Origin: a virus
Lineage: Duplodnaviria > Caudoviricetes
IMG/VR virus record: IMGVR_UViG_3300010356_002264
Reading direction: 5' to 3' (one strand)
Length of the DNA stretch: 64,000 bases
Shown here piece by piece: positions 1,821-61,314 of this stretch (position 1 is the stretch's first letter; each line of letters starts with the position of its first letter). The notes under the pieces were generated by a model. It ran no database searches and was not told the origin of the DNA. It saw nothing but the letters and a program-made list of their open reading frames with translations. A program made the position numbers and the translations under genes.

Positions 1821-1856
1821 CAGCTCCGTCCTGCCCTCTTGCGGGTAGACGCTGGT
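1821..1856 (+). promoter_or_regulatory. promoter with both CAGCTC (1821-1826) and GGGTA (1843-1847); predicted +1 at G1857
   Basis: Same geometry as the element in front of ATG 15222; both motifs independently predict +1 at 1857. Confidence 0.7.
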
Positions 1857-2185
1857 GGGTCGGGTTCGCGGCGTGGCAACATGACACGCGGCCCTCACAG
1901 TACCTGAGGGAACGGGCGAACAGGACGAGGCAGCGTCCAGGATAGGCAGGGAGACGGCACCGACGTACACGCGGAGCAACAGGGAAGCCGTATCGGGAGT
2001 CCGTCGAGGGTGGTGAATAGCCACCCGGGTGGCGCACCTGAATCGACAGGAAGAGCGGGGCTGGAATCGACCAGTGATGCGGGTTGGGCAGGACCCTGGG
2101 AGCCCAACCGAATAAGGAAAGCCGCTCACAAAACGTACGGCCACCACGAGCCAAGCCGGGGCAGGACCGGCCGAACCCGACCCAC
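1857..2185 (+). ncRNA. putative novel structured ncRNA (~330 nt), GGA-rich, upstream of rtcB
   Basis: Perfect 14-bp pairing 1855-1868/2172-2185 closes about 10 mutually compatible helices; 13 GGA motifs; no credible ORF; bounded by two promoter motifs. Confidence 0.75.
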
Positions 2186-2186
2186 T

Positions 2187-2222
2187 CAGCTCCAAAATTC
2201 GGCACCCTTTCGACCATCTCCA
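2187..2222 (+). promoter_or_regulatory. CAGCTC-N18-CGAC promoter for rtcB; predicted +1 at 2223, leader GAAAGGGA
   Basis: CAGCTC 2187-2192, CGAC 2211-2214, then an SD-like AAAGGGA and ATG 2237. Confidence 0.7.
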
Positions 2223-2236
2223 GAAAGGGATCCATC

Positions 2237-3652
2237 ATGTCGTTCAAGTACCAGGTCGAGCAGGTCGGCCCGAGCAAGTTCGTTCTCCCGCGCGTAGGGA
2301 CCATGCGGTGCGATGTCACGGCGTTCCTGTCGCCCGAGCTCTACGCGGCCTCCGAGGAGGACATGTGGGCGGACGCGGCGAAGTCTGCGTCTACGCCGGG
2401 CGCGATCGGGATGTACCTCCAGCCCGACTGCCACAAGGGGTACGTCCTCCCCGTGGGAGGGGTGCTCGTGACCGACGGTGTGGTGGCGCAGGCGGGCAGC
2501 GGGTACGACATCTCCTGCGGCGTCGTGTACCTCCGGGTACCGAACCTGCACGCGCGGGACGTCGCCGACTGGGCGCTCCGCGAGCGCTGGGTGCGGGCGG
2601 TCTCGGACCGCGTGGCGCTTGGCTACGACAAGGGAGGGAACCGACCGCGCCTCATGCGGTCGCCCTCGGATCGCAAGGTCAGCGAGGTCCTGCGCTACGG
2701 GGCGAAGGCGGTCGGAGGAAACCTCGACCTCTGCGAGCGCCCCTACATCCCCATCGACGACAACCTGTTCGACGAGAAGCTCATCCCCAAGGCGCTCTCG
2801 AAGGCGGCACCGCAGCTTGGGTCCGTCGGCGGGGGAAACCACTTCGTCGAGCTCCAGGTCGAGCGGTCGACCGGCGAGGTGTGGGTGATGGTTCACTGCG
2901 GGTCGCGCGGCTTCGGCTGGCAGGCGGCCGACTACTTCTTCGACCGTGGGGCGGAGCTAAACGACCTCCCGCGCGGGCGCAAGGAGGAGTCGTGCCTGCG
3001 GCTGGACTCGGAGCTTGGTCGCCTGTACTGGCAGTGGCATAACGCGGCGGCGAACTTCGCCGTCGCGAACCGTCACGTCATCGCGGCTGGCGTCGCGGAG
3101 GCGACCGAGGAGGTCCTCGGTGCGCGTCCCGAGCTCTTCTACGAGATCAGCCACAACCTGGTCCAGGAGGAGACCCTCGTGCTTCCTGACGGCACCACGA
3201 AGAAGGGGCTCGTCCACCGCAAGGGCTCGACCCGCGCGTTCCCGGCGGGGCACCCGGACCTGGTGGGGACCAAGTGGGCCAAGACCGGCCACCCGTGCCT
3301 CATCCCTGGGTCGATGCTGACCGGCGCGGCGATCCTGTGGCCGCAGGAGGGGGCGTACCAGTCGGGCTGCTCGGTGAACCACGGGTCGGGGCGCGTGATG
3401 GGCCGCAACGCGGCCAAGCGCGAGCTCGCGGCGCTGCACGACGACATCGACCACGAGATGCGGACGATCCGCCGCGAGGCGGGTGGCGCGGAGGTCGTGG
3501 GGATCGTCGGGAACTGCGAGCGGACCCCGCTCGACGAGTGTGGTCATGTTTATAAGGATTTGGACGTAGTGCTCAAGGTGCTGGAGGACAACGGCATCGC
3601 GCGCCTGGCACACCGTTTGTGGCCTGTGGCCAACTTGAAGGGAAGCGACTAG
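2237..3652 (+). CDS. rtcB: RNA-splicing/repair ligase RtcB (3'-phosphate or cyclic phosphate to 5'-OH)
   Basis: Motifs PDCHKGYVLPVGG, GYDISCG, QLGSVGGGNHFVE, VHCGSRGFG, SHN, HRKGSTRA, IPGSM, NHGSGR, DE...YKD. Confidence 0.97.
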   Translation: MSFKYQVEQVGPSKFVLPRVGTMRCDVTAFLSPELYAASEEDMWADAAKSASTPGAIGMYLQPDCHKGYVLPVGGVLVTDGVVAQAGSGYDISCGVVYLRVPNLHARDVADWALRERWVRAVSDRVALGYDKGGNRPRLMRSPSDRKVSEVLRYGAKAVGGNLDLCERPYIPIDDNLFDEKLIPKALSKAAPQLGSVGGGNHFVELQVERSTGEVWVMVHCGSRGFGWQAADYFFDRGAELNDLPRGRKEESCLRLDSELGRLYWQWHNAAANFAVANRHVIAAGVAEATEEVLGARPELFYEISHNLVQEETLVLPDGTTKKGLVHRKGSTRAFPAGHPDLVGTKWAKTGHPCLIPGSMLTGAAILWPQEGAYQSGCSVNHGSGRVMGRNAAKRELAALHDDIDHEMRTIRREAGGAEVVGIVGNCERTPLDECGHVYKDLDVVLKVLEDNGIARLAHRLWPVANLKGSD

Positions 3653-4725
3653 CGGTGCTCGCACTCGCCCCGGACGCAGTTCGGGGTGTAGTGCTGGGTC
3701 CAGTGGTCGGGGGAGGTCACCCCGAGGACGCGGCACTTGAGGACGGCGCGCGGGAAGTCGGTGAGGCGGAACGGGCCGAGGGGGCGCACCACGTACCCCT
3801 CGGACGGGTCCTGGCTCCCGGACCGCCGTGCCCCGCGCAGTGCCGCCTGGGTCGTGAGGCCCCGCAGGATGGCCTCGTCGAACGGTCCCCGGTATAGCTC
3901 GGGGATGGGCTGTAGGCCGAGCAGCCGCGCGTAGAGCGCGGTCTCGTCCCACCCGAGCGCCTGGTCTCGGTCCCAGACGGAGAAGACGAAGAAGCGGTCC
4001 GGCGTCCCGTCGTCGGCGCACAGGTCGTGGTACTCGACCGAGTGGAGGGCGTCGACGTTCTCCCCGCACACGCGGAACTCCGGTGGGATGTCGCGCCACA
4101 GGGAGGCGTGGCGCGCGCGCATGCGGGACCGGCTCGGATGACGCGCGTACCCGTCGATCGACCGCGCGTGCAGGTAGTCCGCCTCGGGGCCGAGGGTGGT
4201 GTTCTCGCCGTCGAGCTTCTCCAGCACGACCACCTCCCGCGCCCGGAGCCAGTCGAGGTCCTGCGGACGCACGAACCGGTCGTCGGCGTCCGCGCACGGC
4301 GACCACGGCAGGTGCAGGGTTCGGGGAGGCTTCACCCGCGAGGTGAACTCGTGCCACACGGGCTGGAGGATGCGTCGCACGCTGTCCTCGAAGCCGAGCG
4401 GGCCCAGCGCTCGGCGGCCGTTCGGTAGGTAGGGGTTGCCCCACTTGTCGATGACGGCCTCCGCGTGAAGGTAGTCGGGCACACGCACCGTCTGGATGCG
4501 TGCGGCCTCGCGCACCTGCTCGACCGTCACCTCGGTGCGCTCGCAGCGGAGGTGACAGGGCCCGCACACGGTCGCTCCGTTGTCGAGGTAGTACCCTCCG
4601 TCGGGCCACAGGCGACGGTCTAGGATGTGGTGGGCGTCCTGGCCGGGGTTCCCGCACAGGACGCACCGGCTGCGGTCGCGCGCGAACACCCTCTCGCGAA
4701 AAGCATCTCGGGTGAGGAGGGTCAT
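3649..4725 (-). CDS. HNH endonuclease-like domain fused to an ATP-dependent RNA ligase (Rnl2-like nucleotidyltransferase)
   Basis: N-terminal RD..RCVLC...DAHHI...DNGATVCGPCH; C-terminal PRTLHLPWS, motif I EKLDGEN, RVCGEN, FFVFSVW, EGYVV. Start fixed by CAGCTC 36 nt upstream. Confidence 0.88.
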   Translation of the reverse strand: MTLLTRDAFRERVFARDRSRCVLCGNPGQDAHHILDRRLWPDGGYYLDNGATVCGPCHLRCERTEVTVEQVREAARIQTVRVPDYLHAEAVIDKWGNPYLPNGRRALGPLGFEDSVRRILQPVWHEFTSRVKPPRTLHLPWSPCADADDRFVRPQDLDWLRAREVVVLEKLDGENTTLGPEADYLHARSIDGYARHPSRSRMRARHASLWRDIPPEFRVCGENVDALHSVEYHDLCADDGTPDRFFVFSVWDRDQALGWDETALYARLLGLQPIPELYRGPFDEAILRGLTTQAALRGARRSGSQDPSEGYVVRPLGPFRLTDFPRAVLKCRVLGVTSPDHWTQHYTPNCVRGECEHR

Positions 4726-4761
4726 GCGGAAGGGCATCTCGACGCGCTGGAGGGCGAGCTG
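4726..4761 (-). promoter_or_regulatory. CAGCTC-class promoter of the HNH-ligase gene (leaderless)
   Basis: GAGCTG 4756-4761 on the + strand; 36 nt to ATG 4725. Confidence 0.65.
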
Positions 4762-4764
4762 TCC

Positions 4765-11024: not shown

Positions 11025-11666
11025 TCACTTCTCCTCGTTCCACTCAACATAGTCCTCGGGGTCCAGGTCGCCACGGGCAATCGCCTCCTTGACGGCCGCG
11101 TGCGTGTCGGGGTTCGCCCCCACGACGAGGACCACGTGGGGGCTCGCGACGCCGCAGAGCACGGTGGCCAGGCGCTTGTGCGCCGAGTAGCTGCCGTGCA
11201 GCTTCCCAGACACCACGTCGGGGAGCAGGACGATCGAGGGGATCGCGTCGACCATCGCGTCGGCCACGCAGCGCGCGAGCCTCAGGTTGAACGCGTCCCC
11301 GTCGCTGGGATCCACCACGTCGCGTACCTGCGTCCCCGTCAGGGTCTCGAAGATCGAGTGCGAGTCCAGGCTCTTCGACCAGCTCTGGAACCAGGACGCG
11401 GCGCGCAGCGAGTCTCCGTTCGAGGGGCGCAAGGATAGTATGCAGCGCAGGTAGGGTGCGGCACCGCTCGGAACAGGCGCCTGGTAGGTCGTCCCGTTCT
11501 CCGTGAGGCGGGCACGCACGACGGGAGACTGGAGGGGTCCTTTCAGCGAGAGCAGGGCCTTCCGTATGAGGTCCACTCGCTCCGCGCAGTCGGCTCCAGT
11601 CACGAGGGTGAGGGGCTTCAGGTTCAAGCCCTGTCGGGGGAGGCCGTTGGCCGCGAGGAGGATCAT
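11025..11666 (-). CDS. hypothetical protein
   Basis: 213-aa ORF; CAGCTC-N18-CGAC exactly 36 nt upstream (11702). Confidence 0.75.
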   Translation of the reverse strand: MILLAANGLPRQGLNLKPLTLVTGADCAERVDLIRKALLSLKGPLQSPVVRARLTENGTTYQAPVPSGAAPYLRCILSLRPSNGDSLRAASWFQSWSKSLDSHSIFETLTGTQVRDVVDPSDGDAFNLRLARCVADAMVDAIPSIVLLPDVVSGKLHGSYSAHKRLATVLCGVASPHVVLVVGANPDTHAAVKEAIARGDLDPEDYVEWNEEK

Positions 11667-11703
11667 GCGTGGGAGTCGGCGACGCCGCTCCCTGCGGAGC
11701 TGA

Positions 11704-12742: not shown

Positions 12743-13099
12743 CTTGTAGACCACCTGACGGACAAACGGCGGGGACACGGCCGCGATGACTCCGTAGCTT
12801 ATCGCGCCGATCTCCCTTCCCTGCTCCCTCTCCAGGTACGCTTTGAGTCCCTTCCCCTCTGCCTCAAGGGAGGCTGTCCAGACCACGAAGTCGACGCACT
12901 GCTTGGCTAGCGGCGTAACAAGGGCCGTGCGCTCCTCTATCGGCCTGGAGCGAAGTACCAGATGGATCTCCCACCACATACGCTCCTGCCAACCGGAATG
13001 CTCCCTGTACCGTCGAACGAGAGTGTCCAGGGCTGCCGTGAGCGGCTCGGACCTCATCTCCGTGACGATCAGCACCCCACGTGCGGGTAGGTCAACCAT
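12668..13099 (-). CDS. hypothetical protein
   Basis: CAGCTC (13135) exactly 36 nt upstream of ATG 13099. Confidence 0.6.
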   Translation of the reverse strand: MVDLPARGVLIVTEMRSEPLTAALDTLVRRYREHSGWQERMWWEIHLVLRSRPIEERTALVTPLAKQCVDFVVWTASLEAEGKGLKAYLEREQGREIGAISYGVIAAVSPPFVRQVVYKSDFYGVVCEPEGLATNDDGLPGRL

Positions 13100-13110
13100 G
13101 AGGATAGGAC

Positions 13111-13722
13111 GTGGAATCCCCGACGATCAGAGCTGAAGGCGCGGCAAAGCGTCCTGTGCGCCTCACGCGCAACGATCGCCGACTGCGCCGGCTGCGGCGC
13201 GTCCCCTTGGTCCGCCTGCTCGCTCGCCTCGGCTACGAGGTCGACCCGGACGGTGAGGACATCGAGCAACCCTTTCGATGCAACCTCCACGGGACGGGGC
13301 AGGACCACAAACCATCGGCCCGCACCTACCCAAAGTCCCCCCGGTGGCACTGCTTCGCGTGCTCGCGATCACGGGACATCGTCGACACGTTTCGAGAGCG
13401 CACGGGAGCGACGCTTGAGGGTGCGCTCGACCGGCTCGAAGAGCTGGCGGGCCTGCCCCCGATGTCGTTCGAGGAGCCGGACGAGGAGGCAGCCTCCCCA
13501 AGCTGGGGAGAGGACGACCCAGCCCCCACGGAGGACCCCATCACCATGCTCGACCGTCTCGCAAGGATGATGGCGCGGGCGAGGGCACTCCCCCTATCCA
13601 CGCTCCTGCATGCGTGGGAGCTCATCGACCACGCGCGCCAGGACCCTGAGTTCGCCGACAAGCTGCGCCCGCGCGTAGATGAGCTCAGGGAGAAGTTCGC
13701 GCGGTCTGCCCAGGGAGGGTAG
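13111..13722 (+). CDS. stand-alone CHC2 zinc-finger protein (DnaG primase Zn-binding domain)
   Basis: FRCNLH...DHKPSA...WHCFAC...DIVDTF......LEGALDRL; no TOPRIM domain follows. Confidence 0.85.
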   Translation: MESPTIRAEGAAKRPVRLTRNDRRLRRLRRVPLVRLLARLGYEVDPDGEDIEQPFRCNLHGTGQDHKPSARTYPKSPRWHCFACSRSRDIVDTFRERTGATLEGALDRLEELAGLPPMSFEEPDEEAASPSWGEDDPAPTEDPITMLDRLARMMARARALPLSTLLHAWELIDHARQDPEFADKLRPRVDELREKFARSAQGG

Positions 13723-14532: not shown

Positions 14533-15163
14533 GCCCCGTACTGCTCGATGATCTTGTGGAGACGCGCGTCGAGTTCGGATCGAATCGAATCGTGAGCCTT
14601 CCAGCCTCCCGCTCCATGCGAAGCAGGAGGTCGATCTCCTGAGCACGAGCTTCGGGAGTCACCTGGACGTACAGGCGCGCGGCCTTCGTCTCGTCAGCGC
14701 TGGGTAGCGCCCAGGACATCAGGCCCGCCAGGTAGGCGCGGTCGGTCCCAGACATCTCTCCGGGCGCGATCACGCAGCGGGCAGCTCTCTGGATCCAGTC
14801 GAGCACCACGCTGGTCACCTCGGTCAACCGCCCGATCCAGAAAGTTCCCTGCGGGACGTGGTGGCTCCCCGCAGGAACCGCAGGCAGGGGAGGTCCGTGA
14901 GGGACCCCACGAATGTAGTCCGCGAAGCGGTCTCCCAACCAGCCGGCGACGAAATCTTCCGGTACGTCGTGGATGGGAACTTCTGGGCACAGGAGAACCG
15001 CGTGCCCATCCTCCACGAGGGCCTGCACATCCTCCTCGTGGAGGACATGGTTGCGGGGCAGCCCGTGGGTGTGCAGGACCCCCCGCGAGTTGCGCGTGAT
15101 GAACGCGACCCGCCCGAAAGACTTGGGGTTTGGACGGTCCAGCAGTGCGACGACCTGGCTCAT
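14462..15163 (-). CDS. hypothetical protein
   Basis: CAGCTC (15199) exactly 36 nt upstream of the ATG. Confidence 0.65.
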   Translation of the reverse strand: MSQVVALLDRPNPKSFGRVAFITRNSRGVLHTHGLPRNHVLHEEDVQALVEDGHAVLLCPEVPIHDVPEDFVAGWLGDRFADYIRGVPHGPPLPAVPAGSHHVPQGTFWIGRLTEVTSVVLDWIQRAARCVIAPGEMSGTDRAYLAGLMSWALPSADETKAARLYVQVTPEARAQEIDLLLRMEREAGRLTIRFDPNSTRVSTRSSSSTGPTAPERTPPRRRPPRSALPASTG

Positions 15164-15221
15164 ACCTCATGCTACTTCTGGACCGCAGCTCCGGAGCTGA
15201 CTGGTCGGGGTAGAACCTCGT
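15164..15221. promoter_or_regulatory. overlapping divergent promoters centred on palindrome CAGCTCCGGAGCTG (15186-15199)
   Basis: Each CAGCTC half lies exactly 36 nt from a start codon (15222 on +, 15163 on -). Confidence 0.75.
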
Positions 15222-15800
15222 ATGGACGGTCTCTCCCCTCTTGCAGAACGTGCGCTCGCCCACATAAAGTCCACCCACACCAGCGTCGGGCACCTGATGG
15301 TGTACCGCAACTTCCAGCCCTACCCGGAAGTGCAGACGCAGTTCCTGCCTGTGATGGACGAGCTCACCGCGGCGGGCTACCTCACCCGTACGGTCTACCT
15401 GGTGGACCGCACGCGACCCGGTACGTTCGGCGAAGACTACGCGAACGTCACGCTGTCGGACGACGAGGCGGCGGAGGCGATCGCGTGTCAGCGGGACCGC
15501 AAGCCGTTCGTCAACCCCGACACGGGAGACGAGCGAGTACCAGGTCCCGAGGACATCTTCATGTTCTACTGCACGACCGCCAAGGTTCCCGTCCTCCCGC
15601 CGCCGCCGGACCCTAGGGGGGTCGAGATCCATGCTCGACTGTTGCGGGAGCGGAAGCAGGTACTGGCGGCGATCCGCGCGGAGGGAGACCCACTCGTCTA
15701 CCACGAGGCGCGACTTGCGGGTCGGGCCGAGGCGTTCAAGGAGGCCGCGGAGATCGTCGCGGCGGCCTACGGGTTCAAGCCGCCTGTCGAGCCGGCTTGA
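15222..15800 (+). CDS. hypothetical protein
   Basis: Leaderless start with both CAGCTC and GGGTA elements. Confidence 0.75.
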   Translation: MDGLSPLAERALAHIKSTHTSVGHLMVYRNFQPYPEVQTQFLPVMDELTAAGYLTRTVYLVDRTRPGTFGEDYANVTLSDDEAAEAIACQRDRKPFVNPDTGDERVPGPEDIFMFYCTTAKVPVLPPPPDPRGVEIHARLLRERKQVLAAIRAEGDPLVYHEARLAGRAEAFKEAAEIVAAAYGFKPPVEPA

Positions 15801-16341
15801 ACTGGGCTAGCTCGCCCGCACCGGGGCGCTTCCACCCGACGATCTGCCCGCTGTCCACGTCGATGTCCATCTCGACGTAGTCGTCGTCCCCCGCGTGGCA
15901 GCAGGACAACGCGTAGCCGTCGTACTCTCCGATCACGCGGTCTTCCGCGTCGTACAGCGTGGCCAGGAACAGGTCGGAGCACTTTCCCTGGATGTTGATC
16001 CAGCGCGTGTTCTCGTTGCGGGGCACTCGTAGGTGGCCCTCTCGCTGACGGAACTTGTAGAGGTCCACAGGGTCGGGGCGCTTCCACCCGACGATCCGAC
16101 CCGTCTGGACGTCGATGTCAAACTCCAGGTAGTCGTTGTCGCCCTGGCAGAAGATCGAGGGCACTGAGCCCTCACGAGACCCTATCGCGCGCCCCTGCTC
16201 GTCGAGCAGTTGGCCGAAGAACAGGCCCGTCACCTTCGCCGACATGTGCAGCGTCTTGGGGGTGGGCTTCCGAGCCCGCCGCGCGCGCTTGGGGGTGTCG
16301 GACAGAGTGCCGGTCGTGGCCGTGGTGATTGTTCTTGGCAT
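15775..16341 (-). CDS. phage protein with two tandem copies of a ~70-aa domain
   Basis: DYLEFDIDVQTGRIVGWKRP and DYVEMDIDVDSGQIVGWKRP; CAGCTC-N18-CGAC 36 nt upstream (16377). Confidence 0.8.
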   Translation of the reverse strand: MPRTITTATTGTLSDTPKRARRARKPTPKTLHMSAKVTGLFFGQLLDEQGRAIGSREGSVPSIFCQGDNDYLEFDIDVQTGRIVGWKRPDPVDLYKFRQREGHLRVPRNENTRWINIQGKCSDLFLATLYDAEDRVIGEYDGYALSCCHAGDDDYVEMDIDVDSGQIVGWKRPGAGELAQFKPARQAA

Positions 16342-16417
16342 ATGTTCTCGTCGAGACTCCGACGAGAAATAGAGCTGACAATCGACGCAAAGGATGGCTT
16401 TTCGGGTAGTAGACCGC

Positions 16418-23728: not shown

Positions 23729-23844
23729 TCCGCGACGGGAAACTCCCGCACCGAGGAATCGTAGATTTTTTCCTTGACGTTGCCCCTCGTTGGTCAGCTC
23801 CAAGTCCGATGTCTACCTCCACTGGAGGGAGGAGGTACCACTAC

Positions 23845-24327: not shown

Positions 24328-24527
24328 CCCGGATGATCGAGGTGGTCAGCGGCGCGCTGCTCCTGGCGATCCCCCTCACCCTCGCCGTGTGGTGGAACGG
24401 TGCGGTCGTGAAGCCCCGCGACCGCCTCCTTGAGTGCGGTCCTGACAAGGCGTGTCGCGCCGAAGCGCTGCGCGACTTCACCGCCCATCATGTGGTGGCC
24501 GCGAGGCTCAACCAGCTATCGCGCTAG
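24318..24527 (+). CDS. small membrane-anchored protein
   Basis: One TM segment (VVSGALLLAIPLTLAVWW). Confidence 0.6.
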   Translation: MSVARMIEVVSGALLLAIPLTLAVWWNGAVVKPRDRLLECGPDKACRAEALRDFTAHHVVAARLNQLSR

Positions 24528-24563
24528 CAGCTCCGATCCGTCCGTCGACATCGACCCTCCGGC

Positions 24564-24923
24564 ATGTCCGCCCCCAACTTCCGTCTGCGCCTGTCGGACC
24601 GAGCGCAGTCCGTCCTGGAGATATTCGTGCTGGACTCGGCGATCCCCGACGAGGAGTTCCCGCGGCTGCGAGCCTGCGCGGACCTCGCTCACGGGGTCCT
24701 CGTCGTTCCTCGCGCCCAGGTGGACGAGGTGCTCCGCGAGCTAACGGAGCTCGCCAACGCGGAGGACGATCGAGCCAACCCTCGGGACGAGCCGGACCCG
24801 GAGCGGCGGGCGCACGCGCGCTACGGGCGGGACGCCATCACCGCGGTCGGGTCCCGGCTGCTGCGGGAGGCGTACCCTCGTCCTCCGGCGTTCGGGGGGG
24901 ACGGGTCGCCTGGTAGAGCTTGA
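24564..24923 (+). CDS. hypothetical protein
   Basis: CAGCTC-N18-CGAC (24528) exactly 36 nt upstream. Confidence 0.7.
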   Translation: MSAPNFRLRLSDRAQSVLEIFVLDSAIPDEEFPRLRACADLAHGVLVVPRAQVDEVLRELTELANAEDDRANPRDEPDPERRAHARYGRDAITAVGSRLLREAYPRPPAFGGDGSPGRA

Positions 24924-25591: not shown

Positions 25592-26605
25592 TCAAGCCCG
25601 CGCCTGGAGGGCGCTGGTGATCGTCTGGTCGCGGTGCAGGTAGAGGTTGTTCGCCCCCGCGTCCTCCGCGCACGACACGGCCGAGCGCCTGTGGGTTCCC
25701 ACGACGGCCTGGCCCAGGTGTCCCGTCGCGACGGCGCAGGAGATCGCCTTGACGACGAGGAGGAAGGCGCGCTCGCCCAGCAGGGCGTCCACGCAGTCGA
25801 CGAGGAGCAGGTCCCCCCCACGGTGCAGCGCGACGAGCAGGTGCGCGACGAGGTGCGCCTGGTCCCCGCGGGGGAGGCGGCCGTCGCAGGGAGCCCCGAC
25901 GACTCGGAGCAGGTCGCGAGCGGACTCCTGCTGCACGACCTCCCGCATCGCGACCTCGTCGACAGGGGTGCGGGCGCTCCCGACGTCCACGAGGGTCGTG
26001 CCCGAAGGCTGCGCGTAGGTCGTACCAGGCCAGACCCAGCCCTCCTGGGCGTGCACCATCTGGACGGGCTGGAGCGTCCGGGTGACCTCGTAGGTCACCT
26101 GCACGGCTCCCGCGCAGGGTCCCCGAACATGGGGGGTGACCGAGGACACGACGGCGATCGTGTCGGTTCGGGCCTCGACGCGCGCGGCCGACACGCGACC
26201 TCCGGACCGCTCCGCGCGCCAGAGCGCGCCCCCGAGCGGGTCCCGCAGGAAGTCCAGGAGGGACAGGGCCGTCGTCACGCCCCCTCCCGGGTCGGCCCAC
26301 ACGACCGAGAACCGGGTCAGGTCGCGCAGCTCGCACGCCCGCCGCCCCATCCAGGGCTCGGCCCGCGCGTAGAGGATGGGCTCGGGGACGAGAGGGACCG
26401 AGGGGACCACGGGGCGCGCGAGCGCCGCGTGCAGGCGCAGCAGCGTGTCGTAGCGCGGGGTCCCTCGCCCGTGCAGGAGGTTGTAGAGGGCGGAGTACGA
26501 GACCCCGACCCTGGCGCAGTAGCGGTGCAGGGACTCGCCAGCCCCGAGGGCCGCGCGCACGGGACGGAGGATCTGCTCGACGACCTCGGGGAGGGACGAG
26601 TTCAT
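25592..26605 (-). CDS. XRE-type HTH fused to a degenerate ABC/AAA_21-like ATPase
   Basis: HTH YCARVGVSYSALYNLLHGRGTPRYDTLLRL; relic motifs WADPGGGVTTAL, LPRGD, LLLVDCVD, QAVVGTHR. Confidence 0.55.
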   Translation of the reverse strand: MNSSLPEVVEQILRPVRAALGAGESLHRYCARVGVSYSALYNLLHGRGTPRYDTLLRLHAALARPVVPSVPLVPEPILYARAEPWMGRRACELRDLTRFSVVWADPGGGVTTALSLLDFLRDPLGGALWRAERSGGRVSAARVEARTDTIAVVSSVTPHVRGPCAGAVQVTYEVTRTLQPVQMVHAQEGWVWPGTTYAQPSGTTLVDVGSARTPVDEVAMREVVQQESARDLLRVVGAPCDGRLPRGDQAHLVAHLLVALHRGGDLLLVDCVDALLGERAFLLVVKAISCAVATGHLGQAVVGTHRRSAVSCAEDAGANNLYLHRDQTITSALQARA

Positions 26606-26678
26606 GGCGCAAGGACGCGGGGTGGAGGCGGGGCGGAGCTGTCAGCTCTGCTTCGAGGACCTGCTCCGACCAGCAGTC
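26606..26678. promoter_or_regulatory. back-to-back divergent promoters on palindrome GAGCTGTCAGCTC (26636-26648)
   Basis: 36 nt to ATG 26605 (-) and 36 nt to ATG 26679 (+); -10 positions read CGTC and CGAC. Confidence 0.78.
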
Positions 26679-27506
26679 ATGCCCACGAACACCCTCTTCG
26701 CTCCCGAAGACTACCCGTTTGGTACGACCCCGCTGCGGGCCACCGCGAGGTCCGTGCTCGATACCCTGGCGCGCGCGGTGCGCGCCTTCCCAGCCTTCGA
26801 GGCGGGAGACTGCGACCCGGTCGCGCTGACCGCCTCCTCGGTGCGTGACCTCAAGCCCGACCAGCTAGAGAGCCTTCGCCAGTTCATGAAGGACAGCGGC
26901 CTCTGCACGCTGTCCATCTCCGTACGACCCGGCAAGCCGCAGGACTCCATCCGACTTCTCCCCGACGGGGCGAACTTCCCCGCGCTGCGCGCCTGCTGGC
27001 TGGCGGGCAACGTGGACGGCCTGGTCCGGTGGCTCGCCCCCCTGCTGAAGACGGAGCAGAACGTCCCGCTCACCGACCAGGGACGCGTGCTGGCCGCGAT
27101 GCTCGGCAGACGGGTCGACCACACGCTCGGCGGAGGCTCCACGCCAGGCAACGGGAACCCCACCCTGGAGAACGTGGCGCGCGTGCTGCGCGCTCGCGCC
27201 CAAGGGGAGCACCTGCCCGCCAAGAAGCGCACCGGTGAGATCCCGGCCCGCGAGGCGTACCTCGTGCTGGCCCAGGAGCTCGGAGTCTCCCCCATGCGTG
27301 CCGGCGCGGTCCTGGCCCATATGCTGCGCGCGGGACGCCTTCCCGGGCTCGTGGGCGTGGAGGGGTCCCCCGCGGCGAACACGGCGTACGCGGTGCAGAA
27401 GGTGATCGCGACCCTTGAGGACGGTTCGTGGAGCGCGGGGCGGTACGTGCTCGACTACCTGGGCAAGTACACCTCGGTGCGCCTCGAAGCCACCCCGAGC
27501 ACGTAG
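26679..27506 (+). CDS. hypothetical protein
   Basis: Start defined by the CAGCTC-N18-CGAC promoter; typical codon bias. Confidence 0.7.
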   Translation: MPTNTLFAPEDYPFGTTPLRATARSVLDTLARAVRAFPAFEAGDCDPVALTASSVRDLKPDQLESLRQFMKDSGLCTLSISVRPGKPQDSIRLLPDGANFPALRACWLAGNVDGLVRWLAPLLKTEQNVPLTDQGRVLAAMLGRRVDHTLGGGSTPGNGNPTLENVARVLRARAQGEHLPAKKRTGEIPAREAYLVLAQELGVSPMRAGAVLAHMLRAGRLPGLVGVEGSPAANTAYAVQKVIATLEDGSWSAGRYVLDYLGKYTSVRLEATPST

Positions 27507-31724: not shown

Positions 31725-31762
31725 ATCAGCTCCCTCCGCCTCGCGTCCCTCCCCTTTCGTCC

Positions 31763-31984
31763 GTGAGAGACAACGATCTCCTCAAACTGGCGAGTGACAC
31801 GCAAGTCACGACCCTACTCGCCGCCGTCAGACAACTCCACAAAGCGGGACGCCTTCGAGCGGCGCTCACCCAGGATCAATGGGTGAGCGCACTGGCGCTT
31901 ACTTCCGCCGTGGAGGAGGAGGCTGCTCGACGGAGGGCTTTGAAGCCGGCCCAGCGAAGAGCCGGGCCGGCAAAAGCGGGTTAG
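31763..31984 (+). CDS. small hypothetical protein
   Basis: CAGCTC (31727) exactly 36 nt upstream of the GTG. Confidence 0.6.
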   Translation: MRDNDLLKLASDTQVTTLLAAVRQLHKAGRLRAALTQDQWVSALALTSAVEEEAARRRALKPAQRRAGPAKAG

Positions 31985-39746: not shown

Positions 39747-39786
39747 GTTCTTGTAGGAAACGTGTCGTCGACGGACAGGAGCTGTC

Positions 39787-40599: not shown

Positions 40600-41190
40600 C
40601 TACTCGGGGCTTAGGTCTTTAGTCACGACCTCCACGATGAACTTCCAGCCCGTATACTCAAAACGGGAGACAGAAAGGCCGTCGAGGTATGCGTTGGCGA
40701 TGTCAAACATGACCTTCGCTGCACCGGGACATGCCGCGATCTTGTCCCACGGGAGTGATCGTAGCCGCGCGGTCAGTCGGTCGACCTCCTTGAGCTTGGA
40801 CACTTCAACGGATGCGGTGCTGAGGTCTTGACGCACGACCACTCCCTCGGGACGTTTTCTCTCTAGGAGGGTCAAAAAGAGGGTCTCGTGAATCCCGAGC
40901 GGGATCACCTGGCTGCGCAGGACCAGCACGCGACGCATACCGTCCGGCATGACGGAGTCCTTCATGGCCGGCTCGTCGACGTGGAAGCTCTGAGCACGCC
41001 ACGGTCCCTGGCCGCTCTTGTTGGTCCGGTAGACGCGACCCCCAACGAACCCATCCTGGGTCCGTTGGAGGGACAGCGCCTGGTGCGCTTCCTCCTCACT
41101 CTTGTGGTCCCCAAGGACCTGGAGGAGCCAGAGGCTTCCAGGGGGGCGCGGGGGATCCAGCGTGGGGAACGCGGGGTTTGCTGGGCTCAT
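40600..41190 (-). CDS. hypothetical protein
   Basis: CAGCTC-N18-CGAC (41226) exactly 36 nt upstream. Confidence 0.65.
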   Translation of the reverse strand: MSPANPAFPTLDPPRPPGSLWLLQVLGDHKSEEEAHQALSLQRTQDGFVGGRVYRTNKSGQGPWRAQSFHVDEPAMKDSVMPDGMRRVLVLRSQVIPLGIHETLFLTLLERKRPEGVVVRQDLSTASVEVSKLKEVDRLTARLRSLPWDKIAACPGAAKVMFDIANAYLDGLSVSRFEYTGWKFIVEVVTKDLSPE

Positions 41191-41227
41191 GCTATGGGGT
41201 CGGGGATCCGCATCCGACCGGAGCTGA

Positions 41228-47330: not shown

Positions 47331-47356
47331 GGGTCAAGTAGCTCACGGGTCAAGTA
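47325..47356. repeat. exact 16-bp tandem duplication GCTCACGGGTCAAGTA
   Basis: Copies at 47325-47340 and 47341-47356, spanning the deacetylase stop codon. Confidence 0.9.
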
Positions 47357-48263
47357 GCCCACGCAACAGGTACTCTGCGCTCTCCGCCGTCGCCTCTCGG
47401 TGGTAGCCCCCCTCCAGCACGGCGGCCAGCCTCGGCTGGAGCTTGAGGAGGTCGCGGACCAGCACCCCGTAGTCAGCGGACTCCAGCTCAAGCTCCGCCT
47501 CAGGGTCGAGCCGGTGCGCGTCGAACCCCGCCGACAGGAGAATGATGTCTGGCTGGAATCCTCCAACGAACGGGAGCACGAAGCGCTGCCACTGGGTCAT
47601 GTAGTCGGCGGTCGTGGTCCCGCCACGCAGCGGGACGTTCAGGTTCATCCCCCGCCCATCCCCCTGACCGTACTCGTTCGCCCTCCCGCTGAAGGGGTAG
47701 AACGGGTGCTGGTGGGTGCTCACGAACAGCACGTCTGGGTTGGAGTAGAAGAGGTCCTGCGTGCCGTTGCCGTGGTGCGCGTCGATGTCGACGATCGCGA
47801 CGCGTGCTCCGCGCGCCTGACAGGCCGCAGCGGCGATCGCCACGTTGTTGAGCAGGCAGAAGCCCCCCGCGTGGTCTCGCCCCGCATGGTGGCCCGGCGG
47901 ACGCACGACGGCAAACCCGTTGTCCTGCGCGGAGGCAAGCACGCGAGTCGCGACCTCTGTCGCGCTGCCCGCGGCAAACAGGGCAGTCCGCAGGCTCCCC
48001 GGACCAAGGTACGTGTCCTGGTCCAACCACCCTGAAGATCGGGAAGCAAGGTATGCCCCGTAGGTGTCCGAGTGGATACGGCGCACCTCATCTACCTCAG
48101 CCGTACGAGGGGCCACCCGCACGCATCGATCGGCCAGCCCCGCGGCTTCCAGGCGACGCATGATCGTCCGTACACGGTCTGGTCGTTCTGGGTGGTCAGA
48201 ATCGCCATCCGGCGGTTCGTGGGCCGCGCAGAAGACCTCATCCATGCACAAGTTGGTACTCAT
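47343..48263 (-). CDS. histone deacetylase family (class II-like) Zn-dependent amidohydrolase
   Basis: HPERPDR, DTY, RPPGHHA, GFCLLNN, VDIDAHHGNGTQ, SAGFDAH, LEGGY; CAGCTC (48299) 36 nt upstream. Confidence 0.96.
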   Translation of the reverse strand: MSTNLCMDEVFCAAHEPPDGDSDHPERPDRVRTIMRRLEAAGLADRCVRVAPRTAEVDEVRRIHSDTYGAYLASRSSGWLDQDTYLGPGSLRTALFAAGSATEVATRVLASAQDNGFAVVRPPGHHAGRDHAGGFCLLNNVAIAAAACQARGARVAIVDIDAHHGNGTQDLFYSNPDVLFVSTHQHPFYPFSGRANEYGQGDGRGMNLNVPLRGGTTTADYMTQWQRFVLPFVGGFQPDIILLSAGFDAHRLDPEAELELESADYGVLVRDLLKLQPRLAAVLEGGYHREATAESAEYLLRGLLDP

Positions 48264-48460
48264 GGGGTGGAAGCGCGCGGACCCTGTGACCTGGAGCTGT
48301 CTGTTCGCTTCCGCCGCAAGATGCCACGGTCCGCGATCTCCCCAGAGACTGCGCGCAGTCGTTCTCGGTCCCAAGGACGACCCGCCTTGGCGAGCAGGAT
48401 GGTCTCCATGAGCTCGGTGCAGAGGTCGTCGTCAGACATCTCGGAGGGAGGCTGGGGCAT
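48260..48460 (-). CDS. small hypothetical protein
   Basis: CAGCTC-N18-CGAC (48496) exactly 36 nt upstream. Confidence 0.6.
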   Translation of the reverse strand: MPQPPSEMSDDDLCTELMETILLAKAGRPWDRERLRAVSGEIADRGILRRKRTDSSRSQGPRASTP

Positions 48461-48496
48461 GGGGAAGCGTCGATGACCCCTCGTGACCCGGAGCTG

Positions 48497-51400
48497 CTAC
48501 GGGACCTCCCTTCGGATCCCCACGACTCCGCGCACGAAGAGGTTCGGGGCCGTCACGTCGGAGGTCCCGAAGGTCCCCGTGAGGGGGTTCTTCGGGTGGG
48601 AGAGGTCGTACGGGAGGGCTTCCGGCGTCATGGTGACCCGAACGAGCAGGGGCACCTCCTCGAGGAACCCGGAAGGACGGAGGGCCGCGAAGTCTCCAAG
48701 GTTCAGCCGGAGACGGCAGTACACGAGCCCCGTGTCGGGGTCGACTCCGCTCTCCGTGCCAGGTCCGTGGATGAGGCAGCCAGCTCCATCCTCGGTCGGG
48801 CTCTGCTTTCCAGGCCCAGTTCCGTCTCGGCGACCCGCATCCATCCACGTCGTCAGCCCCGGCACCTTCACGTGGACGGCGACCACGCCCCGCTGCCCAG
48901 GGCCGGGCGCAACGTACCCGATGTCACTGAGGTCTACCCCGTCGACGCGCAGCGTGACGACCGAGCGCCCCGCGTACTCGTAACCCATGTCGATCGCGCG
49001 GACGTATGCGCGCGGTCCCAGCGCCTTGGAGTAGTCGGGCTGGTCTACGGAGAGACCGTCGTCGGCCTTCGACGGACGCACGCCGGCCGCCGCGTAGTCG
49101 ACCGCGGGGTAGCGAACGACTCCTGTGGACGGGTGAGGGTAGGCGGCTTGCTCCACGGCAGATGGAGCCCTGTGCGGCAGCCCCGCGACCTGGAGGTGAC
49201 CGAGCTTGAGCGGGTCGAGGTGGCGGCCCAGCCGGACCCAGGACATCTCCTGCCACCCCGCCGTGTGCGCGATGCGCACAGGAAGGGCGAGGTAGGCTGG
49301 CAGCCAAGTCCCCAGGCCAGGTCCGGAGAGGGCTTGGCTGGCGGGGAAGGCGTAGATGCTGTCCACGGGGGTCCACTCGTTCGTCCAGCGATAAACCTCG
49401 TCGAGGAACCTCTCATCCTTGTCGCGGTCCGTGTTCGCCAAGCTGGCCGGAACCCCGTAGGGCACAGCCCCGCCGGTCGTGTAGTTGCCCGTCCGCGGCA
49501 GGGAGGCCCCAAAGTTCCCCGCCGTGTGAAGCATGACCTGCGCGGGGGGATCGAGCGTGAGCTCCACCCCGCGGTCGGAGGGCCACAACCCCCCGTCATG
49601 ACGCGACCGCACGAACGCGCGGATCCGCGCGTCGCTGGAGAACGACGGCGTGTCCGTGTCCCCCCGCAGGGGCATAGTGGTCGTGCAGGAGACGTCCAGC
49701 GTGTCGGTCGGGTCCGGTGCGTTGAGGCCCCCGTACGTGCCTCGGGCGTTGTTCCCACAGTGGGTCAGGGGCACCTCCACGCGTCGAAGCCGTGGGTCCC
49801 CCGCAGACCCGGCGAACGAGGTGAGCGCAGCAGGTGGGCTGGCTCCCTCGGGGACCTCGATCGAAGGTTGGCCTGGGATGGTTGGGTGCTCGCCCCAGCC
49901 GAACGCCGCGAGAGACAGCACCACCGGGCATGGAGGGGCAATGACCGCGGGAGGAATGACGCGCGCGAACAGGCGCGCGTCGTCGACACCGAACACGCCG
50001 GTCTCAAACACGCCCATGGCACCCTGTAGACCGACGGAGAGCAAACCGATCAGGGAGTCCCCCGTTGTGGGGTCGGTGGGCACGTAGTAGGCGACTCCCG
50101 AGACCCACATGACGGGAGGGGTTGCCGCCACGGACCACTTGGCGGACCCCGTGGCGGAAGCGGGCGTCGTGGGCTCGGCGGGCACCGATACCTCCGCGCG
50201 CACGGCATGGTAGGAGACGGACGCATACCCGTACGTGGGGGCGGGGCCGCGCGGGGGTCTTGCCCCCCCACCATCGAAGTTGGAGACGTTGCTCATGTAG
50301 CCGGGCCGTATGGTGTCGGCGACGCGTGCCCCATACAGGTCTCCGAGGTCGAGCGCCCCCGTGAGGACGAACTTCTCGAACGCCCCCTCAGTACGGAAGT
50401 GCAGCAGCAGGTAGGTCCCCACGCGCACCAGTCCCGCCCCCGGAGCCGGCGCGAGGAACGCGTGCCGGTACCGTGCTATCTGTCGCGACCAGCCGTCCTG
50501 ATGGAAGAGCCCCCCGTAGAGCCCGGCCGTCGGGAGGATGGCGGGTAGGAGCGTGCCGTCAGGCAGGATGTTCGCCGCCGGCAGCTTCTTCTCGAAGAAG
50601 CGGAACGTCTCGCGGGATCGCAGGACATCCATCCCCCTGGGCGTGTAGGGCAGGGTCGCGTAGTCGGCGACCTGAGGGAGCCGGTAGGCAAGGAAGTTAG
50701 GCTCTGCTCCCTTCCTGGTGAGCAGCACCGTCGAACCCAGCACGACCTGACCGCTCGCGTCGGGAGGAGGGGCAGGGGAGTAGCCAGATAGGGAGGCCCC
50801 CAGGATGGGGATTCCATACGGGAGGACAGGGCCCGCACCCCCGTCGGTTCCGAGGCGGACTTGACCCGCCGCGGGCCAGGTTGCGCCCGGCGCGCGACGT
50901 GCCCCCTGCTTGCCGTCCGCGTCGTAGTCGTCGTACGGCGCGCGCAGCAGCAGCCCGTCGAGGCTGTCCACACCGAGCAGGATCTCCCGCAGGTCGTACT
51001 GACCGCTGGCGCGCCCCGGAAAGGCGAGGGGGTCGTAGTTACCGTCCTCGTCCCGGCCTGGGTCAAAGATACCCCCGGGGCTTCCGTCGCAGGCATCGTT
51101 GCAGCCCGAGCACTGACGCGGCTTGGGCGGCGGGGGTGGGAGGATACCCTGTCCGAGCAGGACCGCTGCGACGACGCGGTCCTCGAAGGGCTGGGCCAGA
51201 AAGTCCGCTGCCTCGGTGAGCTTGCCGTCCGGTCTCGTTGCGGGCCACTTGACGAGGGCGAGCACGCCACGGTCGGCCGGGTGGATGATGCCGGACACCA
51301 CGACGGGAACGTACTCGTAGCGCGTCGCGGTCGCTGGATCGATCCAGCGACGCACCGCGCGCAAGGTACGTACAGTCGGACCTGCACCGGCGGCGACGCC

Positions 51401-57109: not shown

Positions 57110-57146
57110 TCAGCTCTGGACGGGCCCCCGCGTTCGATGTGGGATT

Positions 57147-57425
57147 ATGAGCGAGCCCACAAAACTATCAGACCAGGCTCAGAGCCTGGATGAGATCGAA
57201 CGGCGCATCCGCCTCGCGGCCTACAAGCTGGCCGATGACGCAGCCCGAGGCGGCTTAGCCTCCGATGGAGGCGCTAGGGAACTGCTGACCACCCTCAAGA
57301 TCTGGCAGCAGGGGCTGCGCGGAGAGATCCCAGAGTCGATCCGCGCCACCCTGACGAACCCGAACTATCCCACCTACTTCGAGGATGTGCAGACCCCGGA
57401 CTTACGCAAGCCGCCTCCGGGCTAG
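57147..57425 (+). CDS. small hypothetical protein
   Basis: CAGCTC-N18-CGAT (57111) exactly 36 nt upstream. Confidence 0.65.
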   Translation: MSEPTKLSDQAQSLDEIERRIRLAAYKLADDAARGGLASDGGARELLTTLKIWQQGLRGEIPESIRATLTNPNYPTYFEDVQTPDLRKPPPG

Positions 57426-60400: not shown

Positions 60401-60664
60401 GACCTGCCCGAGGCGTGCACCGGGGAGACCGACGCGCATCGGGAGGACCGCGTGGGGAACCGAGATGGCCTCGATCTCCACCAGCGTGCCCGGCGGGACG
60501 GGGGTCTTGGGGCGCACCGCTCCGAGGTAGGGGTCAAGGTCCTCGACCTCGGCGACCTTCCCCGCGACCCGAAGCACCACGTCAGCGATCGTCGCGGGAA
60601 GGTGGGGACCTAGCCGCGAGACCCAGGGACCACCACCGAACACGAGGGGGAATCGCTTGGACAT
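57422..60664 (-). CDS. large putative virion structural protein, 1080 aa
   Basis: Long beta-rich ORF co-oriented with the structural genes; CGGTAGGAT element upstream of the ATG. Confidence 0.55.
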   Translation of the reverse strand: MSKRFPLVFGGGPWVSRLGPHLPATIADVVLRVAGKVAEVEDLDPYLGAVRPKTPVPPGTLVEIEAISVPHAVLPMRVGLPGARLGQVGMPVGPPGSRGRMTLVVGGPVPNPQPLRVAHRYLAQDRSRASLLGDPIGMRVGRRLGYSPPTPLSGRFVRVRVSLDPAAFASLWDVRGSGDARPTQDGVVVMADPDAVFATTPIPARDAGRSFLTGRVVVDPPDSPAFSPRAAIGVHDGGTMALAAVVDVEGFRHLGLLTGNGEWTDASAWGLFPALDLRAETPTTLRVVSQTGLTRALRPGDRLRIASGPQAGALVIARVHRNDLSQVLLDLVDPLPVDPDEEGGRSLRGTLDLGVTSSTWILRVDVRGAEVSASAASAEAALVQASGGARPPLRAPLLLRGVADPLTQGAGMFGSIVGRSTWQAVVGEAYGARLPDRALVVDSPLPVAFPSADWVEVPPAEVTPSVGLVTLRGDGGAHPAGAALLTPLMERGAMVQVVSTAAVREETGTGDLWVDVCDGDRRVVLASLVTVMDGGVERVWLPDGAGLSSGTDPALSGWMTTGGRWVSSPVALRADGSPSSDIDLPTAFLLRMSARVDPGGSDVRLVLGDADHGVEVHLRRGVAEVRAGAAFRTSVPILAGPVRVEVGISFVGGIVFVEGAPPIPLSPVDLAGSVRASPGATVAATSGARLYRVAVFLPPPAGARRTVGLLLDPANPGALASWRLPLKDVDPRVSTNLRVLLDPAWGAVVQAPGTPLPSGWLSDRIDDASVVVRAGYEEAPSANGSAQGVLVGVGPASLGLVEHLGARVRVAARDVPGEVGPQRAAVLGRSAMTSSGDHLSDALPARFSVPARAGVASMDAAGVRLARLFRARPLGTTHWWEPPVVELRDDGAVQLPVVYEGVVEVEGVPARMTHPETLESMAVAGSPHEHGEGTPPFYPLWMSRPTRRDYADPDSTGKSAGYDPLDVDRSLLLQAERRIEDGGVRQRVWVASDDPDDGPPTTGDGPGDDGGGGPNIELEGYEETFPRPRDGTNVGAMLVGGLFRPRGGKHPGTPTLDRRGQGPAYVLAPAPWLVSIELLP

Positions 60665-60696
60665 GCCCCCATCCTACCGCGGGGGTGACGGGCTCC

Positions 60697-61002
60697 CTAC
60701 CAGTGGAAGCGGAAGCTGTGCGTTGGCCCGCGCTTCTCCACGATGATCTTGTCGGCCTCCAGGCGGGCAATCGTGTCGGCGTGGAGCTCGCCGTAACGGT
60801 CCTCTGACGTGTGCCGGCTCTGCTCGGCGTAAGGCTTACAGAACACCAGGACGTCGTTGTACTGCTGCGTCACCAGGCGCTCGTGCGCGGTATTGCGGGC
60901 CTGCTCGGCGCGCTCGGTGATGTCGCGCAGGCCCTGCGCGGTGAGGGGTTCGGCGGACGGGGTGGATGTTGACTTGCGGGTGCGCGGCTTAGCCTTGGTC
61001 AT
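60697..61002 (-). CDS. small hypothetical protein
   Basis: SD AAGAGGA before ATG 61002. Confidence 0.65.
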   Translation of the reverse strand: MTKAKPRTRKSTSTPSAEPLTAQGLRDITERAEQARNTAHERLVTQQYNDVLVFCKPYAEQSRHTSEDRYGELHADTIARLEADKIIVEKRGPTHSFRFHW

Positions 61003-61028
61003 GGCAGTCCTCTTGGTCGGATGGACGG

Positions 61029-61268
61029 GGCGCGGAGGAACCCAGAAGCTGGGTCCTGACTTCCTCCGCGCCTTCGTGATCCTTTGGATCTTCTGGGCGG
61101 CCGTTATCGCCCACGGGTCGTAGGTCCCTAGCGACCACATCTCCCGCACGAGGGAGTCAGCGCGAGACCTCTTGACGGAGCTGACGATCTGGGGGGAGGA
61201 TGCCGCCCATGCGCGATACAGTGTTCTCGTGGGCGGACGGGGCGCACATCTCGCAGGAGATCGCCCCG
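61029..61268. ncRNA. hairpin-dense intergenic element (candidate structured RNA/leader or DNA element)
   Basis: Eight back-to-back inverted repeats, including a perfect 12-bp stem 61029-61040/61061-61072. Confidence 0.45.
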
Positions 61269-61314
61269 ACCTTCTAGTCAGCTCGGCTCCTCCGGGCCGC
61301 CTCGGTTCTCCCCC

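Follow-up and report, generated by a model that had tools for sequence, protein, structure and literature searches.

A class of predicted leaderless promoters in a giant phage and a phage-encoded sigma factor that probably reads it

A stretch of 64,000 nucleotides (nt) from the virus record IMGVR_UViG_3300010356_002264 (Duplodnaviria; Caudoviricetes), referred to here as the window, raises a simple question: what reads the hexamer CAGCTC, which recurs at one fixed distance ahead of start codons? We analyzed the window together with the metagenome assembly that contains it and identified the hexamer as part of a two-block motif, class I. We consider it probable that most promoters of a giant phage belong to class I, its principal type, that a phage-encoded sigma factor reads it with the core RNA polymerase of the host, and that the products are leaderless mRNAs. 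An earlier note on the window had placed CAGCTC exactly 36 nt before 15 start codons, and all 15 matched when the distance was counted from the first C to the codon (14 ATG and one GTG, at 31763). The hexamer itself was not enriched, since the window has 58 copies and shuffled sequence gave 51.6 +/- 7.2. An ATG was found at +36 for 14 of these 58 copies, while the other offsets from 6 to 119 averaged 0.48 ATGs and never had more than 4 (binomial P=4.8e-17). The whole of the CAGCTC signal in the window lies in its constant distance from the start codon.

The window is part of contig C242 in a metagenome bin of 7.2 Mb (260 contigs, completeness 94.7%, contamination 7.45%). The earlier note expected a spike at 36 nt throughout the genome; a spike was seen (184 copies against ~60), but it derived entirely from the phage contigs C242, C37, C103, C98 and C128, which total 428.5 kb. 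On these contigs 123 of 399 CAGCTC copies had an ATG at +36 and the other in-phase offsets had 1-5, while in the remaining 6.78 Mb of the bin 61 of 5589 copies had an ATG at +36 and the other offsets had 51-68, so that no spike was visible there. More than half of the sites bearing an open reading frame (ORF) were on C242, C37 and C103 only. A promoter-only matrix spanning positions -38 to +1, which did not require an ATG, gave 155-160 matches on the phage contigs at a score of >=12, where ~9 would be expected from the density in the rest of the bin. At >=18 there were 110 matches on the three main contigs and eight elsewhere. Four of these eight were on the 15.8-kb C98, which we placed with the phage element for that reason; the other four were the only such matches in 6.8 Mb, and none had the leaderless ATG pattern. 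The class I regulon is private to the giant-phage contigs and not genome-wide. These counts bear on the reading that a host-encoded alternative sigma factor recognizes the motif and that the phage copied a host regulon signal. The bin does hold ~30 sigma genes, many of the extracytoplasmic function (ECF) type, but with no distance spike and only those four strong matches off the phage contigs we regard this as highly improbable. Absence from the host means here absence from the rest of the bin, and the true host may be another organism; a search for short matches of the kind that CRISPR spacers give, between the phage contigs and the rest of the bin, returned nothing useful for naming it. Exact-pattern scans of metagenome and genome contigs gave one match per contig among the matches listed, which is chance level and uninformative about relatives, and a scan of viral contigs gave multiple matches only on the IMG/VR copy of the phage's own C37.

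The consensus was derived from 117 sites on the phage contigs, each of which opens an ORF of at least 60 codons. It reads T(-37)CAGCTCCG, a non-conserved gap of 15 nt, TCGACT (-13 to -8) and C(-1)A(+1)TG, with TCAGCTCCG from -37 to -29 as the -35 block and TCGACT as the -10 block. The counts out of 117 were 85 for T-37, 82 for C-30, 69 for G-29, 92 for A-10, 98 for C-1 and 113 for A+1. Information was limited to -38..-27 and -13..-7, most of it in the -35 block, and positions -26 to -14 carried none. The recurrence of CGAC 18 nt past the hexamer, which had been reported for the window, held on all the phage contigs: among 155 copies of TCAGCTC it occurred at offset 24 in 58, and at any other offset in three or fewer. 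An ATG followed the same copies at offset 36 in 86 cases and at offset 37 in 12. Holoenzymes of the sigma-70 family recognize two blocks ~24 nt apart and start at a pyrimidine-purine step 7-8 nt past the -10. Since the motif has this geometry and a sigma gene is present on the motif-bearing contigs, a phage-encoded sigma factor is the best reading. The fixed ATG distance and the preference for C at -1 and A at +1 place the predicted start at A(+1), and we infer that class I mRNAs are leaderless and begin on the A of the ATG.

Would a motif of this kind be something other than a promoter, for instance a signal for RNA processing or translation, a site of recombination or packaging, or part of a repeat family? 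The promoter reading is drawn from DNA sequence and not from transcripts, and words containing AGCT can be restriction or methylation targets. However, the motif was strand-specific and faced the same way as the gene downstream of it, whose start codon lay at a constant distance, and it consists of two short conserved blocks around a free spacer with C(-1)/A(+1) preferred. The copies were also too dissimilar over their length for a mobile repeat. We find a non-promoter role hardly credible.

A well-scoring ORF had its start codon exactly at +1 in 105 of the 160 matrix matches, ~13 class I matches had short leaders of 10-17 nt, and 16 matches were without an ORF. The class I +1 was the start of ~91 of the 475 predicted genes, and some class I promoter was present at ~30% of the genes in the window and at about a third of those of the phage. 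A Shine-Dalgarno (SD)-like 4-mer occurred between -16 and -4 in 11 of the 105 leaderless class I genes, as compared to 186 of 406 other predicted genes. The first nine codons of class I genes contained 21% G relative to 34% inside genes, and such G-poor 5' coding ends suit an unstructured 5' end. The intergenic gap of ~40 nt was essentially the promoter, class I filling the 36 nt before the ATG. Many copies had been described as sitting right after a TAG stop; we found that the promoters usually begin 0-8 nt past the stop of the upstream gene on the same strand, and TAG precedes the motif because it is the stop codon of that neighbor and the commonest stop in the phage. Stop codons of the predicted genes on C242, C37 and C103 were 261 TAG, 161 TGA and 52 TAA, and a TAG share of 55% is unusual at 67% GC. 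In divergent pairs the -35 boxes stood back to back (26605/26679) or crossed (15163/15222). The targets were short, with a median of 152 amino acids (aa) against 196 for all genes, and only one of the 23 genes of >=700 aa was in the class. The proposal that the regulon consists mostly of accessory genes holds loosely, in that most of these short targets were without a family match; in the window the only targets with one were an RNA ligase, a histone-deacetylase-domain protein and a weakly matching regulator-like protein.

Which protein would read class I? A search with Pfam region 4 models gave weak or partial matches in four phage ORFs, among them P0001, a protein of 257 aa encoded outside the window on the minus strand (C242:20701-21474; L074:1702-2475). 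Its sequence indicates an N-terminal domain of ~110 aa followed by region 2-like and region 4.2-like segments. P0001 matched phrog_1740, 'RNA polymerase sigma factor', at 1.1e-6; in Pfam P0001 alone had only a weak r4_2 match (E=0.042), and Sigma70_r2 had no match on the phage contigs. An exhaustive profile search showed that the family has at least 570 cluster representatives at E <=1e-3. A profile of 60 family sequences matched PDB 3mzy (Fusobacterium sigma-H) at 7.8e-12, with positions 120-276 aligned to residues 2-158 across regions 2 to 4, and 18 and 12 of the 60 members individually matched Sigma70_r2 and Sigma70_ECF, respectively. The AlphaFold 2 model of P0001 had a predicted local distance difference test (pLDDT) score of 88.6 with the 60-sequence alignment, and a poor score of 54 with four sequences. 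Foldseek with the whole model returned almost exclusively sigma factors. VIA-align superposed the C-terminal domain on sigma-4 domains with Z values of 8.2-8.5 (root-mean-square deviation 1.9-2.7 A over 61-68 residues) and aligned up to 153 residues with ECF sigmas. The earlier note had proposed a single sigma factor, either phage- or host-encoded, and the presence of a complete, divergent ECF-like sigma on the motif-bearing contigs supports the phage-encoded option. We think that P0001 is probably the sigma that reads the class I motif. The host core RNA polymerase would take up P0001, the resulting holoenzyme would start transcription on the A of the ATG, and leaderless single-gene messages would be made for ~105 mostly short genes of unknown function, with SD-only leaders of 11-17 nt for roughly a dozen further genes.

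If P0001 and the motif are a cognate pair, the promoter word should change with the sigma. We compared five lineages. In L078, whose sigma is 83% identical to P0001, TCAGCTCC was present at -37 of leaderless ATGs that are called gene starts, including that of the gene divergent from the sigma, and the same was seen in L077 (63% identical). In L079 (57% GC, sigma 40% identical) TCAGATC(C/T/A) occurred at exactly -37 of eight leaderless ATGs; the -35 word of L079, TCAGATCC, thus departs from that of the P0001 phage at a single base, and its -10 is also different. The recognition helix of region 4.2 reads RVRERAREW in the P0001 phage and QIRQAASDW in L079. In L080 (34%) we found palindromic GAGCTG-N-CAGCTCGG divergent promoters with a 1-nt shift. 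L110 (IMGVR_UViG_3300023174_000096; 33%) had ~12 copies of cgattcttGGTTAC-N13-CTCCGTGGTG-N5-ATG in a 10-kb cassette adjoining the sigma gene, and this pattern (word GGTTAC...CCGTGG) gave 14 matches in the record as compared to none for a reversed control. In this small sample the promoter word appears to change together with the sigma lineage, as a cognate pair predicts, and such a change also argues against a host-encoded sigma as the reader. In a screen of 63 IMG/VR loci encoding relatives of the sigma, for k-mers at a fixed distance from ATG, clear leaderless motifs were detected in only a few (L079 and L110); most relatives may use leaders, which a screen anchored on ATG does not see. Screen signals in L103/L104 and L111 were coding tandem repeats and were rejected as promoters. 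The L110 cassette (1.3-11.3 kb) comprises ~13 small genes, each with the private promoter, and shows the design a second time, independently and with another word. Inside the sigma gene, where the linker joins regions 2 and 4, three lineages have a conserved class I-like match (TTCAGCTCC...TCGAT, scores 11-18) that may just follow from conservation of the SAPSALD peptide.

Two further phage proteins have sigma-like helix-turn-helix domains and led us to consider a different reader. One is a region 4-only protein of 209 aa on the minus strand (C37:128341-128970; L072:1841-2470), with an N-terminal Sigma70_r4 match at 7.2e-12 and a second, weaker tandem copy; its gene is translationally coupled to that of an upstream 221-aa protein of unknown family. 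The other is a protein of ~127 aa with a C-terminal r4 match (C37 near 98.0-98.3 kb; L076:1443-1823). Such proteins might bind the TCAGCTCC box while a phage activator or sigma-appropriation factor remodels the host primary sigma, as MotA/AsiA do at T4 middle promoters. That two phage proteins consist of region 4-like helix-turn-helix domains only is in keeping with this model, as is the concentration of information in the -35 block. On the other hand, TCGACT is unlike TAnnnT, and a separate class with TAnnnT exists in this phage (described below), so class I seems to need another -10 reader; moreover, the phage encodes a full sigma of its own, in which both region 2 and region 4 are present. 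A remodelled host sigma is therefore, in our judgment, unlikely. A second possibility is that an unrecognized phage-encoded RNA polymerase reads the motif. Very divergent multisubunit polymerases are found in many giant phages (PMC7824862), and the window encodes large proteins without a family match (1146, 1179 and 1080 aa). Yet neither RNA_pol_Rpb2_6 (beta) nor RNA_pol_Rpb1_2 (beta') had a Pfam match on the phage contigs, although E values as high as 1 were admitted. A bipartite motif with an uninformative spacer of 15-17 nt is, as far as we know, a signature of the sigma-70 family and not of known phage polymerases. In addition, group 1 giant phages, which have their own RNA polymerase, encode no sigma factor, while all members of group 2 have sigma factors and no RNA polymerase (PMC7824862). 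We consider a phage polymerase very unlikely.

Several points weigh against the assignment of class I to P0001 and of its transcripts to the leaderless type. We found no RNA sequencing run carrying the phage sequence, and the predicted +1 is a reading of the DNA. The link between sigma and motif is one of co-occurrence plus five lineages. Foldseek gave the whole P0001 model an E of only ~0.01, which is weak and which we attribute to a different orientation of its two domains, and, for helical proteins, a VIA-align Z of ~8 is modest. Pfam could miss phage polymerases that are very divergent, and the region 4-only proteins, of which there are at least two, could take part as co-factors, rivals or sigma-appropriation factors. 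The motif had been likened to ECF promoters; its rigid spacing and short CG-containing -10 bear this out, but the sigma gene is not autoregulated in the manner of typical ECF sigmas, as there was no class I match upstream on its strand and the sole nearby copy drives the divergent gene. The -35 word also lacks 'AAC' and presumably matches none of the catalogued ECF consensus motifs. No anti-sigma was identified next to the sigma gene, where no dedicated search for one was made; the adjoining genes had no recorded family match in the relatives. We nevertheless hold a phage sigma acting with the host core polymerase to be the probable reader.

How would the phage sigma itself be switched on? A second, putatively leaderless promoter class, with GGGTA 14-15 nt before the ATG, was found on the phage contigs at ~40 genes; no GGGTA spike at this distance was seen elsewhere in the bin. 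Its layout is GGGTAnnnT, 5-6 nt and the start codon, with TAnnnT at ~-12..-7 and without a -35 block. In the window this class heads most of the largest genes, all on the minus strand: those starting at 60664 (1080 aa), 46596 (1735 aa) and 38187 (2068 aa), and also the AAA+ ATPase gene at 39483; GGGTAnnnT likewise precedes the start codons at 47030 and 40578 on that strand. GGGTA was present 14-15 nt before the GTG or ATG start of the sigma gene in four of five lineages examined. A two-step cascade seems likely but unproven. With low confidence we propose that the host primary sigma reads this -10-only class, that the class in turn activates the phage sigma, and that the phage sigma would then turn on the class I genes. 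The opposite order of the two classes, or a packaged sigma, would be alternative arrangements.

We then considered the individual sites in the window, where 14 of the 15 listed promoters had matrix scores of 10.6-26.7. Those on the plus strand with a predicted leaderless ATG were 15185..15222 (score 10.6, GTAG -10, ATG 15222, 192 aa), 24527..24564 (26.7, ATG 24564, 119 aa), 26642..26679 (26.6, ATG 26679, 275 aa, back to back with the promoter of 26605), 57110..57147 (17.6, CGAT -10, ATG 57147, 92 aa) and 61278..61315 (21.0, CGGT -10, ATG 61315, 99 aa). Leaderless sites on the minus strand were 11666..11703 (25.8, ATG 11666, 213 aa without a family match), 13099..13136 (25.2, CGTC -10, ATG 13099, 143 aa), 15163..15200 (16.9, GTAG -10, ATG 15163), whose -35 region crosses the divergent promoter of 15222, 16341..16378 (23.6, ATG 16341, 188 aa), which is divergent from the gene of a family A DNA polymerase, and 41190..41227 (26.7, ATG 41190, 196 aa). 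The minus-strand promoter 26605..26642 (19.7, CGTC -10) has the leaderless ATG 26605 of a 337-aa protein with a weak match to phrog_18104, a phage transcriptional regulator family. The promoter 48263..48300 (minus strand, 16.4) leads to the leaderless ATG 48263 of a 306-aa histone-deacetylase-domain protein; the gene (47343-48263, minus strand) is a phage-encoded member of the histone-deacetylase family (PF00850, 7.6e-87) under a class I leaderless promoter. Two of the listed ORFs had weak coding scores, namely the 73-codon ORF that opens with GTG 31763 behind the weak site 31726..31763 (plus strand, 11.1; coding score 2.1) and the 66-codon ORF with ATG 48460 behind 48460..48497 (minus strand, 20.0). 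The fifteenth site, 4725..4762 on the minus strand, is a weak variant (score <8) with CAGCTC at -36 and poor flanks and -10, ahead of the leaderless ATG 4725 of the RNA ligase gene. The motif had been said to fix otherwise ambiguous starts, and the RNA ligase read from its motif-predicted ATG does align from residue 1 with phrog_24030.

Five further copies had been predicted to give a +1 at 1857, 2223, 23831, 39748 and 61147, and all were matrix matches with scores of 11.1-20.4. The promoter 2186..2223 (plus strand, 20.4, CGAC -10) is followed by a 14-nt SD leader and the ATG 2237 of rtcB (RtcB Pfam match at 3e-81), and 23794..23831 (plus strand, 15.4) by a 14-nt leader that begins GGAGG and ends at ATG 23845. 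The weak site 39748..39785 (minus strand, 11.1) has an ATG 2 nt downstream, at 39746 (71 aa), and 61147..61184 (minus strand, 19.4, TGAC -10) has an in-frame ATG at 61140, which gives a 7-nt leader. The fifth, 1820..1857 (plus strand, 13.5, GTAG variant of the -10), with its +1 at G1857, has no start codon and heads the non-coding gap upstream of rtcB. This gap is 366 nt long (1857-2222), with the ORF-less class I promoter at its head and rtcB, under its own class I promoter, directly downstream. A search of the gap (window 1857-2222) against Rfam gave nothing at gathering thresholds. By analogy with RtcB operons elsewhere, which pair with Y RNAs, it may be a structured RNA gene.

What kind of element carries these promoters? 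C242, C37 and C103 form a tight outlier cluster in tetranucleotide space, and C37 is 99.9-100% identical to the IMG/VR contig IMGVR_UViG_3300009687_000006. C128 (1958 bp) has 141-bp overlaps with both the end of C37 and the start of C242, and because of these overlaps we joined C37, C128 and C242 into one molecule of at least 350 kb. C37 and C103 open with an identical, equally oriented 141 bp, which indicates that the assembly graph forks there at a repeat or a variant. The phage genome is at least 350 kb and probably ~430 kb, its contigs having been binned into a bacterial metagenome-assembled genome. The window encodes RtcB, the RNA ligase, a SNF2 helicase, a DnaB-like helicase, a methyltransferase-like protein and the family A DNA polymerase, as well as a beta-helix protein of 1735 aa and several others, 1000-2000 aa long, that match no family. 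The AAA+ ATPase has relatives (31-37% identity) in jumbo phages, among them CcrColossus, those of Brevundimonas, and Pseudomonas phage PA1C along with related phages, and is also shared with phiKZ-like phages. Compared with C242, the window has seven single-base differences at 38569-39205, all within the AAA+ ATPase gene, which suggests phage strain variants in the sample. Pfam Terminase_6N, Phage_sheath_1 and Phage_capsid (HK97) had no match on the phage contigs, so the virion genes are either very divergent or on unbinned contigs. That the element is a giant phage is well supported, although not proven by hallmark genes, by the identity of C37 with the IMG/VR contig, the jumbo-phage homologues of the AAA+ ATPase, the presence of sigma relatives on IMG/VR contigs of 200-600 kb, and composition.

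The class of mechanism is familiar; what is new is the consensus, the scale (~160 promoters in one genome, ~105 of them predicted to be leaderless) and a nearly perfect rule by which the promoter occupies the gap and the predicted +1 falls on the start codon. A full-text literature search found no paper in which a phage-encoded sigma factor is joined with leaderless promoters, and no description of a sigma family with this N-terminal domain seems to exist. It is quite conceivable, though we stop short of calling it probable, that huge phages share a large undescribed sigma family with a private promoter word per lineage, of which this phage has a minimal design, with the gap serving as promoter and messages starting on the start codon. 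If so, the family would supply orthogonal sigma/promoter pairs ready for use, and would be a natural case in which to test leaderless translation on a large scale in infected cells. For an otherwise unannotatable giant phage, ~160 gene starts or transcription units become testable predictions; three large contigs of a 'bacterial genome' appear to be viral; and an uncharacterized phage sigma family is paired with readable, lineage-specific promoter words. If confirmed, this would be among the most extensive programs of leaderless transcription known in a virus.

Phage sigma factors that redirect the host polymerase include gp28 of Bacillus phage SPO1 and the T4 late sigma gp55. The present system resembles these and the group 2 jumbo phages in that a phage sigma would redirect the host core polymerase to promoter sequences absent from host DNA. 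Promoters of T4 gp55 consist of a -10 only and need gp33 and the sliding clamp, whereas the motif described here is bipartite with a dominant -35 block. The phage is not an evident member of group 2, as it has a family A DNA polymerase and no gp23-type capsid or other hallmark matches. Sigma factors are common in jumbo phages that lack a polymerase (PMC7824862), and genomes of huge phages reportedly encode sigma-70 and AsiA-like proteins (PMC7162821). Canonical ECF (group 4) regulons likewise have a two-domain sigma, blocks at a rigid distance and a short -10 that contains CG (CGAC/CGTC), but here there are more than 100 targets and not a handful, no autoregulatory copy on the sigma strand, and a -35 without the AAC core. 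The phiEco32-like phages have an outlier ECF-type sigma, gp36 (PMC7881722). The likeness is that of a lytic phage without its own polymerase that has a small sigma of regions 2 and 4, an ECF outlier, with its own promoter class. The sigma studied here differs in its conserved N-terminal domain of ~110 aa, and the word here is TCAGCTCC-N17-CGAC, with ~160 copies in ~430 kb, about two thirds of which give predicted leaderless mRNAs. Leaderless middle and late mRNAs are known in Thermus phage P23-45, and leaderless units in Actinobacteria and Deinococcus-Thermus. Class I has in common with them a predicted start on the A of the start codon, no SD and a -10 at a fixed distance from the ATG; leaderless transcripts of mycobacteria are a published example (PMC4633059). 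Units of the P23-45 type, however, use the host primary sigma and a TAnnnT -10, and thus resemble the GGGTAnnnT-N6-ATG class of this phage and not its CAGCTC class.

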